A stretch of DNA of 7,923 bases. Origin: a virus (lineage: Monodnaviria > Loebvirae > Hofneiviricota > Faserviricetes > Tubulavirales > Inoviridae). The stretch is from IMG/VR virus record IMGVR_UViG_2651869724_000001, positions 1 to 7,923 of that record; one strand, given 5' to 3'. Under the pieces are notes generated by a model. It was given only the letters and a program-made list of their open reading frames with translations. It was not told where the DNA came from and ran no database searches. Positions 4,109 to 5,502 of this stretch are shown one piece after another. The number at the start of each line of letters is the position of its first letter. Within the stretch, counting starts at the first letter, position 1. A program made the position numbers and the translations under genes.

Positions 4109-5305
4109 TTAAAATGGAACTGAACGATTATAGAATTTACCTGCAATCACCTGCCGATAAACATCCGGTATTGAAAATCTAATCTTCTCATCCTGTATAT
4201 CCTCATGTCTGACAATGGCAGTAAATACCGCCTCATAATCATTACCGAGAAGATGAAATAACTTTGCAACAGATTTAGAGCACTGCTTACGTAACCAGTG
4301 AACATTATGTTCCAGTGCATTAATTGCCTTTTTTTCGTCCGCTAAGTCAGGACGATAAGGATTAAACTTGCGTGGTTTAGCTGGATTGATTTGTGCAGCA
4401 TAATCACACAATCCCGTAAAATAACCGGCAATATCAAGCAGTACATCAACAGGAACCCCTTTAAGCTCGACCTCAGAACGATTCCACGTACCACTGACTT
4501 TTTGTTCAAGCGCTTTATTATAGATACGCCAGTAAACACGCGATTGCCGGGAACCAAACGTGTACATCTCCTGCTTTAATAATGCGCGACCATCCCACTT
4601 ACAGGAATTCGAAAAACCCGGACGCGGCCCCTTACCACTATAAAACGCGCCAGAACGATGATCGCGAACAGCTGCATCGCATGTAAAAACACCATCGAAA
4701 TCATCAACAGCCAAATCAATACGCTTGAGCGTAGTAATATTCAGATGTTTCAACCATTTGAATACATCCTGAGGCTCAGTACCACTAAATACATGAGCAC
4801 ATCCCAGACCGGAAATCTGTATATATACCGTGTTATTGTTTCCACCCCAGAATGCAAAGCCATGTAGATTATTACCGCCATCATCAGAAAATAATGGCGC
4901 AGAACAACGATAATTAAAGCCACCACGGTCCCGTTCAGGTCCCATACTCAAACCGAAAGCACTGGATAACCAGATTTTAAGGCGATGCAAATACGCAGCC
5001 TGAACAGCCTGATTATATTGTTCAATTTGATGTTCAATTAACGCTCTATCGCCAGAAATACCGCTACAAATTTTATCTGATTCCGCATCATCAGGAACCC
5101 AGCATCGAGTTTCAGGATCAACCACATCACGAAAGAAGGCATCACGACCGGGCAGAAAATCACGCAGACGCGGCATGGAACCATACTTACGCCAGAACTG
5201 AATAGCACCGTCGAAAGTCTCAAGATTCTTAAGCTCACTTATTGGAAAAGTGAAAGCAAGATGGTCTATGAAGACGTGACGTATGGTTTCCTGAACCGGC
5301 TTCAT
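4109..5305 (-). CDS. Rolling-circle replication initiator (filamentous-phage pII/RstA-like, Rep_trans-type), 398 aa from the RBS-supported start
   Basis: Contains [17 protein letters not shown], matching the YxGSRxS...RxYxK signature of the Rep_trans family. AGGAG lies 10 nt upstream of the ATG at 5305-5303, which overlaps the TAA of the upstream ORF (TAATG). The listed start at 5335 has no RBS. Confidence 0.65.
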
Positions 5306-5502
5306 TAGCAAACAGTCTCCTGATAACCGACCCATGAACCAGAAGGCAGTGCAACAGATACCAGAACGAAGTCATCCCCGATTGTTTCAACGCATGCAAT
5401 GAACAGCTCATTAAATGAGCTGAAGAAATCCCATTCACCATCAATGCAGGCATTAACGCCATAATCAGGAATGTAATCGTAGTAAACAATCTCGTGAGAC
5501 AT
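5305..5502 (-). CDS. 65-aa acidic hypothetical protein, translationally coupled to Rep
   Basis: Listed [68 protein letters not shown]. Stop overlaps the Rep start (TAATG). Only a weak GGTG upstream. First gene of the minus-strand operon. Confidence 0.35.

Follow-up and report, generated by a model that had tools for sequence, protein, structure and literature searches.

A conserved small acidic gene overlapping the start of the replication initiator in a filamentous prophage of Escherichia coli

Introduction

Directly upstream of its replication initiator gene, on the minus strand, a filamentous prophage of E. coli contains a short open reading frame of 65 codons at positions 5305–5502 of the DNA studied here (in the following called the window: the entire 7,923 nt of IMG/VR record IMGVR_UViG_2651869724_000001). 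Is this frame, which we call ORF65, a gene, and if so, what does its product do at the head of a replication operon? An initial annotation had described it as an acidic protein coupled to Rep and matching nothing recognisable, at a place where canonical Ff genomes have no gene, and had proposed that it may modulate Rep or the repressor, or act on the host. We compared the locus with related inoviruses, modelled the protein and followed its inheritance relative to its two neighbors, the initiator gene and the divergent repressor gene.

Results

The element and its operon

The window comprises most of an E. coli filamentous (inovirus) prophage plus one insertion sequence. Positions 1–6200 are 99–99.9% identical to chromosomal prophages found in 15 complete E. 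coli genomes, and in the O166:H15 strain JNE21-003 the matching prophage is a tandem duplicate adjoining a dif-like site. The filamentous prophage that carries ORF65 is CTX-like and integrated at dif. Its minus-strand operon contains, in this order, ORF65, the Rep_trans initiator, a 111-aa protein, small coat-like genes, a 549-aa adsorption-like protein, DUF2523 and Zot; in full-length prophages the secretin gene follows next after Zot, outside the window. A megablast search of the prophage against the phage collection gave zero matches, and neither tRNA genes nor Rfam families were found in the window.

Some further features of the element were recorded. The ORF of the 549-aa adsorption-protein-like product (1376–3025, minus strand) contains a long (GSGTGT)n/(GT)n repeat run at 1700–2100, recalling the glycine-rich linkers of g3p, which differ in repeat number among UPphi phages (PMC7307601). 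A long imperfect palindrome at 6344–6437 (arms 6357–6382 and 6394–6418, XerC-arm-like GTGCGCA on the flanks) is similar to the folded double-dif attP known from CTXphi-type phages. The palindrome sequence abuts a hybrid dif site beside hipA in AST217; JNE21-003 has a dif XerD arm (TTATGTTAAAT) directly outside the tandem prophage. Because the window diverges from intact prophages at ~6432, within the second dif-like arm, and the remainder to 7923 contains an ISNCY-family transposase gene split in two ORFs (6485–7048 and 7048–7923+), it seems that an IS inserted in or next to the site of phage attachment.

Located 3′ of the repressor gene and on the same strand, a 46-aa hydrophobic ORF (6194–6334, plus strand; MHDMILDLLMKYLIAGSLFGMFLF...) may encode a lysogeny-expressed membrane protein. 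A divergent 51-aa counterpart occupies the equivalent position in L004, an E. coli prophage described below, and in E24377A a small hypothetical CDS is annotated where this ORF would fall (annotation only). The stretch 5868–6145 is non-coding and G+C-rich and includes a tight hairpin (ACCCCCGTGTT / AAGACGGGGGT, 5938–5961); kept in related E. coli prophages, it could be an origin or packaging signal. The enterotoxigenic reference strain E24377A (L027; NC_009801.1, 1701276–1715666) has this module of repressor, ORF65 and Rep as well; a 391-bp query that extends over the intergenic region and ORF65 into the beginning of Rep is 97.7% identical. Judged by annotated gene sizes and products only, the genes downstream look unlike those of the window, and the prophage adjoins hipB and a truncated hipA.

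ORF65 is conserved as a protein

The ORF65 coding sequence (5305–5502, minus strand) runs from an ATG at 5502–5500 to a TAA at 5307–5305. In identical E. coli prophages RefSeq/PGAP calls ORF65 (WP_000017776.1) and Rep with unchanged boundaries. ORF65 is the first cistron of the minus-strand operon; no ORF lies between the promoter-like site and its ATG. A weak Shine-Dalgarno-like sequence, GGTG, can be read 5 nt 5′ of the ATG (5508–5511, minus strand). The composition is as initially described, rich in acidic and aromatic residues: 11 Asp or Glu, no Lys or Arg and 12 aromatic residues among 65 (18%), giving a net charge of −11. An open frame by itself shows nothing here, as the window contains 75 ORFs of at least 30 aa and the length of ORF65 alone is compatible with chance; whether it is real must therefore be judged by conservation.

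That the protein matches nothing recognisable no longer holds. ORF65 matches the phrog_3104 HMM over its full length (E 8.4e-25; residues 1–65 on profile positions 1–69 of 69), 10 of the 11 aligned homologues match this HMM as well, and ORF65 is related to ORF67 of phage VGJphi (see below). A word-seeded search yielded 7 relatives and an exhaustive HMM search a few more; 15 IMG/VR inovirus contigs carry an ORF65-family gene. A profile search delivered 86 homologue clusters from inoviruses of E. coli, Proteus, Photorhabdus and many Vibrio species, and every cluster with a source name was labelled hypothetical. Scanning the genome contig collection with one ORF65-family alignment gave no relatives. 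All close relatives found have an intact copy of the gene; absence there would have spoken against the initial annotation.

Indels among the variants are multiples of three. Pairwise dN/dS was 0.03–0.15 in the informative (unsaturated) pairs and 0.27 in the closest pair; in most of the more distant pairs synonymous sites were saturated, with dN values of 0.3–0.5 among enterobacterial lineages. The 86 clusters are all acidic, with net charges from −5 to −13; acidity is kept in 55 family members, and the family median is −8. Judged by this pattern of conservation, ORF65 is a genuine protein-coding gene under purifying selection.

Searches of ORF65 and its alignments against Pfam, NCBIfam and PDB sequences gave no matches, and ORF65 together with 10 homologues had no Pfam match at E-values up to 10, the HicB and UPF0150 families included. 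A DNA-binding or enzymatic motif was not detected in ORF65. Literature searches on f237/Vf33, YpfPhi/CUS-1, UPphi, VGJphi and E24377A yielded no statement of function for the ORF65-family gene. ORF65 is a new member of a catalogued, uncharacterised inovirus family.

AlphaFold2 predicted the same β-β-β-α-β model from alignments of 8 and of 55 sequences, with strands at residues 4–11, 15–20 and 23–27, a helix at 30–40 and a fourth strand at 45–49. The mean pLDDT is 81 and exceeds 88 over residues 11–50; the C-terminal 15 residues, including those whose codons form the Shine-Dalgarno sequence of Rep, reach 48–58. The nearest structures are weak matches and include isolated HicB-N/UPF0150-type β-β-β-α-β protein-binding domains (PDB 3k6q, 1wv8). 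Homology search and structure prediction, both proposed in the initial annotation, yielded a family and a fold model, and no informative structural match was found for the latter.

The Rep start and its overlap with ORF65

Rep (398 aa; Rep_trans/PF02486, phrog_453) is encoded at 4109–5305 on the minus strand, with its ATG at 5305–5303. Stop and start codon form the sequence TAATG (5303–5307, minus strand), in which the last A of the ORF65 stop is the first base of the in-frame Rep ATG; base 5305 is common to both, as the initial annotation had noted. An upstream start at 5335, which would give a frame of 408 codons, had been named there as one finding that would refute this arrangement. Several observations support 5305 as the probable start over 5335: an AGGAG Shine-Dalgarno-like sequence, read at 5317–5321 (minus strand) in ORF65 codons Gln61–Glu62, precedes it by 11 nt; the Rep frames of L013 and L017 are blocked 5′ of their first Met, which aligns with Met 5305 of the window; PGAP places the Rep start at the base corresponding to 5305; and 5335 has no Shine-Dalgarno sequence 5′ of it, nor do the ten extra residues have a counterpart in any relative. 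The phrog_453 match to Rep also begins directly after Met 5305.

The overlap is not peculiar to the window. Among 20 loci examined closely, spanning 29–100% identity to ORF65, the small ORF ended 0–16 nt past the Rep ATG in every one, with overlaps of 1, 8, 10, 11 or 17 nt, and in most of them GGAG or GGTG was located 5–11 nt 5′ of the Rep ATG, in the last codons of the small ORF. The conserved C-terminal motif is Y-Q/R-E in the enterobacterial and G-V-F in the Vibrio proteins; since the Rep Shine-Dalgarno sequence lies within these last codons, part of the motif also encodes the Rep ribosome-binding site. Such double coding fits the low structural confidence of ORF65 residues 50–65. The overlap has the classic geometry of translational coupling, suggesting that the two genes are coupled. 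RNA at the ORF65/Rep junction folds no better than shuffled sequence (z 0.04), so that no masking structure is implied and it is the geometry that points to coupling; the leader together with the whole of ORF65 is only mildly structured (z −2.2).

Two further ideas about the relation between the proteins were rejected. The phrog_453 match to the window Rep leaves 110 N-terminal profile positions unmatched, but ORF65 is not this missing N-terminal Rep domain, as it does not match phrog_453. A metagenomic protein, P0024 (L023:1245–1592), in which an ORF65-like domain is fused in frame to the first ~45 Rep residues, was considered as Rosetta-stone evidence; an IS630-family transposase gene lies directly next to it and the Rep gene is disrupted by this element, hence the fusion is probably a decay product and not a functional protein.

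Distribution and a sister family

In a survey anchored on Rep_trans relatives (at least 32% identity and enough upstream DNA), an ORF65-family ORF was found directly upstream of Rep in 50 of 73 IMG/VR loci. The loci lacking one were mostly those of Reps beginning MKKQVFTPEE, without any upstream ORF, which we take to be CTXphi-like RstA loci. Weak hits in this survey revealed a sister family, phrog_2419, of 67-aa acidic proteins that likewise end at or over the Rep start. Profile–profile comparison of the two families (hhalign) gave a probability of 97.4% and an E-value of 1e-11, whereas the single ORF65 sequence matched the phrog_2419 HMM weakly and over residues 5–40 only (E 0.0069). This indicates that phrog_3104 and phrog_2419 probably form a shared superfamily, not that ORF65 is a member of phrog_2419. 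Identity at the protein level is 23–40% both between E. coli and Vibrio family members and toward the sister family.

Among cultured phages, phrog_3104 is confined to the Vf33/f237/VALGphi group of the genus Villovirus, in which the ORF is hypothetical or unannotated. Vf33, Vf12, VfO3K6, VfO4K68, VALGphi6/8 and Vipa26/36 have a 71-aa phrog_3104 ORF upstream of Rep (Vpf402, or ORF1 of f237; unannotated in the older records of Vf33 and VfO3K6). Like ORF65, it belongs to this family (best member E 1e-42), is acidic and is the last gene before Rep, whose start it overlaps by 17 nt. The following gene order also resembles that of the window, with a Rep_trans Rep, then a small RstB/gV-like gene and then the coat genes. 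The Villovirus ORF differs from ORF65 in sequence (23–33% identity, depending on the alignment), in the longer C-terminal tail of the Vibrio phrog_3104 proteins and in its neighbors: the regulator in Vipa36 has 129 aa, and a further ORF on the same strand lies upstream.

The sister family phrog_2419 includes ORF67 of VGJphi, annotated since deposition of that genome, and is also present in fs1, ND1-fs1, VSK, VEJphi and V. cyclitrophicus inoviruses. ORF67 is, like ORF65, acidic and ends at or over the start of a Rep_trans gene, and both share the motifs IYYD in strand 1, G-I/V-N in strand 2 and LV-x-IT in strand 4. It differs in its neighbors, the regulators ORF58, ORF154 and ORF136 (XafV), with no 71-aa protein. 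The literature examined reports no function for ORF67 and assigns none to phrog_3104 or phrog_2419 as families. To our knowledge, canonical Ff genomes have no gene at this position; the earlier statement is correct for Ff and does not extend beyond them, as Villovirus (Vf33/f237) and Fibrovirus (VGJphi, fs1) phages possess a homologue.

Promoter, operators and exchange of the immunity cassette

About 30 nt upstream of ORF65 lies a sigma-70-like promoter (5536–5565, minus strand; TTTACA, 18-nt spacer, TATGAT) with 10 of 12 consensus matches. Because the number of promoter-like sites in the region equals the chance expectation, we regard it as a plausible and not a demonstrated promoter. The palindrome CGCATGCGC occurs on either side of it, each copy a candidate operator: one at the predicted transcription start (5525–5533), the other abutting the −35 hexamer (5568–5576). 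The divergent gene beyond them (5637–5852, plus strand) encodes a basic protein of 70/71 aa (phrog_2503, pI 9.6), a putative ribbon-helix-helix protein and the presumed repressor of the immunity cassette. Most repressors encoded beside ORF65-family members share a helix motif, IVNxLIDxY.

Comparison with related prophages located a boundary inside ORF65. A cassette of ~385 bp (window 5475–5858), consisting of the repressor gene from its 3′ end, the intergenic operators and the first ~10 ORF65 codons, is ~99.5% identical in L004 (440–825), an E. coli prophage with an unrelated Rep. Beyond ORF65 codon 10 the identity drops (the ORF65 proteins are 54% identical) and vanishes in Rep: the L004 Rep is a Phage_GPA protein of 666 aa, non-homologous to that of the window, although the repressor is the same (99%). 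The reverse arrangement exists in AST217 and four other E. coli genomes, which have the same ORF65 body and Rep (98%) and a different 66-aa repressor and intergenic region (window 5475–5858 compared with L026:1150–1510); here the junctions fall near ORF65 codon 5 and in the C-terminal repressor codons (..EELKKKKAM). The AST217 cassette (L026:1375–1495) brings an inverted repeat of its own, GACCTCATGT ... ACATGAGGTC, with one arm overlapping the ORF65 start codon, which suggests that each immunity cassette carries its own operators. Among the IMG/VR loci L013, L015 and L017, identity is 85–97% for ORF65 and 97–98% for Rep, but only 25–35% for the repressors.

Read from these alignments, immunity cassettes are exchanged with a junction at approximately ORF65 codons 5–10, and ORF65 lies on the replication side of this recombination boundary. 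Over all pairs, ORF65 identity was correlated with Rep identity (Spearman rho 0.66) and not with repressor identity (−0.06); the pairs are non-independent and the genes adjacent, so this correlation reflects co-inheritance, not interaction.

Discussion

Which role would account for a small acidic gene that is conserved as a protein, overlaps the Rep start and travels with the replication module? We tentatively favor, at somewhat less than an even chance, the reading of ORF65 as an accessory factor for rolling-circle replication whose translation is coupled to that of Rep. It would be a small, very acidic cytoplasmic protein encoded by the first cistron of a repressor-controlled replication operon. 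The ribosome-binding site of Rep would lie in the last codons of ORF65, whose stop overlaps the Rep ATG; from this embedded site and overlap, Rep would probably be made mainly by ribosomes fresh from translating ORF65. Rep output would then be tied to ORF65 translation, and the amount of ORF65 should equal or exceed that of Rep. Because ORF65 is under purifying selection and inherited with Rep, it may serve as an accessory or regulatory partner in the start of rolling-circle replication and might bind Rep, or a host factor needed by Rep. We infer the translational coupling, any physical partner and whether replication would be promoted or restrained; no experiment or homology tying the ORF65 family to any activity was found.

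Some observations weigh on the accessory reading. A 54%-identical ORF65 homologue of 84 aa is kept in front of the non-homologous Rep of L004, a pairing not easily explained by a single conserved interface on Rep. As the presumed CTXphi-type RstA loci have no ORF65-family gene, Rep_trans initiators can in principle do without it, and the correlation with Rep may reflect physical linkage only. A broader version, which would make the ORF65/ORF67 superfamily a so far overlooked core component of the rolling-circle process in many Vibrio and enterobacterial filamentous phages, acting as a stoichiometrically co-translated acidic partner, appears doubtful to us; such a partner could restrain Rep nicking in an antitoxin-like manner or link Rep to a host factor, for example UvrD or HU. 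We rejected the idea that the family substitutes for HU in Rep-dependent nicking, because VGJphi, which has ORF67, and CTXphi, which has no such gene, both require HU and UvrD (PMC4439123).

The L004 pairing would be easier to understand if the target of ORF65 were not Rep. ORF65 might be a host-directed early protein that neutralises a basic host protein in the manner of a DNA mimic, candidate targets being a nucleoid-associated silencer or a DNA-targeting defence or repair protein. The net charge of −11 without any Lys or Arg, a feature ORF65 has in common with the highly negative DNA mimics Ocr and ArdA, the acidity kept in 55 family members, the position as first cistron and the lack of a detected DNA-binding or enzymatic motif are all consistent with this. 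However, neither homology nor a structural match to DNA mimics (Ocr, ArdA and similar) or anti-defence proteins was found, a host-acting factor would not need the strict coupling to the Rep position seen in 20 of 20 loci, and the family appears to be missing from CTXphi-type phages of the same hosts. We consider a host-directed role unlikely.

The position of ORF65 directly across the operator region from the repressor gene is reminiscent of cro in lambdoid phages, and an acidic protein facing a basic repressor (pI 9.6) could be an antirepressor or switch protein that binds it and locks in productive replication; the IVNxLIDxY helix of most neighboring repressors would offer a possible common target. 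The exchange of cassettes and the lack of co-variation with the repressor (rho −0.06) argue against ORF65 as a repressor-specific antirepressor: near-identical ORF65 proteins are found beside repressors of 25–35% identity and a 99%-identical repressor beside a 54%-identical ORF65, the recombination junctions part the ORF65 body from the immunity cassette, and in Vibrio the Vf33-type members adjoin a different regulator of 129 aa. The comparison with RstC of the CTXphi satellite RS1, a small accessory antirepressor acting on the decision between lysogeny and replication (PMC4439123 and general knowledge), leads to the same result. The RstC gene lies downstream of rstB and not upstream of rstA, whereas ORF65 lies upstream of Rep; no similarity of ORF65 to RstC was detected in any of the libraries searched, and pairing with a cognate repressor, as for RstC, is not observed for ORF65, with its swaps at codons 5–10. 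An antirepressor function is improbable, the more so an immunity-specific one. Of the three roles initially proposed, modulation specifically of the repressor is disfavored by these data, and modulation of Rep and action on the host are both compatible with them.

In plasmid R1 (tap-repA) and in IncI and IncB plasmids (repY-repZ), a short upstream ORF overlaps the rep start and Rep synthesis depends on its translation. The Tap and RepY peptides have 24–29 aa, are not known to be conserved as proteins and are controlled by antisense RNA and RNA structure. ORF65 resembles these leaders in ending over the rep start codon (TAATG, 5303–5307), and the conserved overlap, the embedded Shine-Dalgarno-like sequence in most loci and the poorly predicted C-terminal 15 residues, the Shine-Dalgarno-coding codons among them, could be read as signs that only its translation matters and the peptide is functionless; yet selection on the amino acid sequence is strong (dN/dS 0.03–0.27) and largely excludes this reading, the 65-aa protein has a confidently predicted folded core, conserved acidity and homology recognisable at 23–40% identity, and no stable RNA structure masking the Rep start, no antisense element and no Rfam match was found, which leaves a mere leader ORF very improbable.

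With the accessory role in replication as the preferred reading, three points are new here: the overlap of the small gene with Rep is conserved across lineages, the gene can be assigned to the replication module, and it forms the boundary at which immunity cassettes are exchanged. Filamentous prophages of this type carry or mobilise Vibrio virulence genes; VGJphi mobilises CTXphi, and f237 belongs to pandemic V. parahaemolyticus. Such prophages also occupy dif in pathogenic E. coli such as ETEC E24377A and O166:H15. Accounts of their replication module usually name Rep and a single-strand binding protein. A third gene, small, acidic and overlapping the Rep start, is conserved with Rep across Villovirus-like, Fibrovirus-like and enterobacterial lineages. 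Should ORF65 be dispensable, it would be one more conserved phage gene of unknown function; if it controls Rep or recruits host factors, it would add a new regulatory layer to rolling-circle replication and provide a handle against the spread of these phages.
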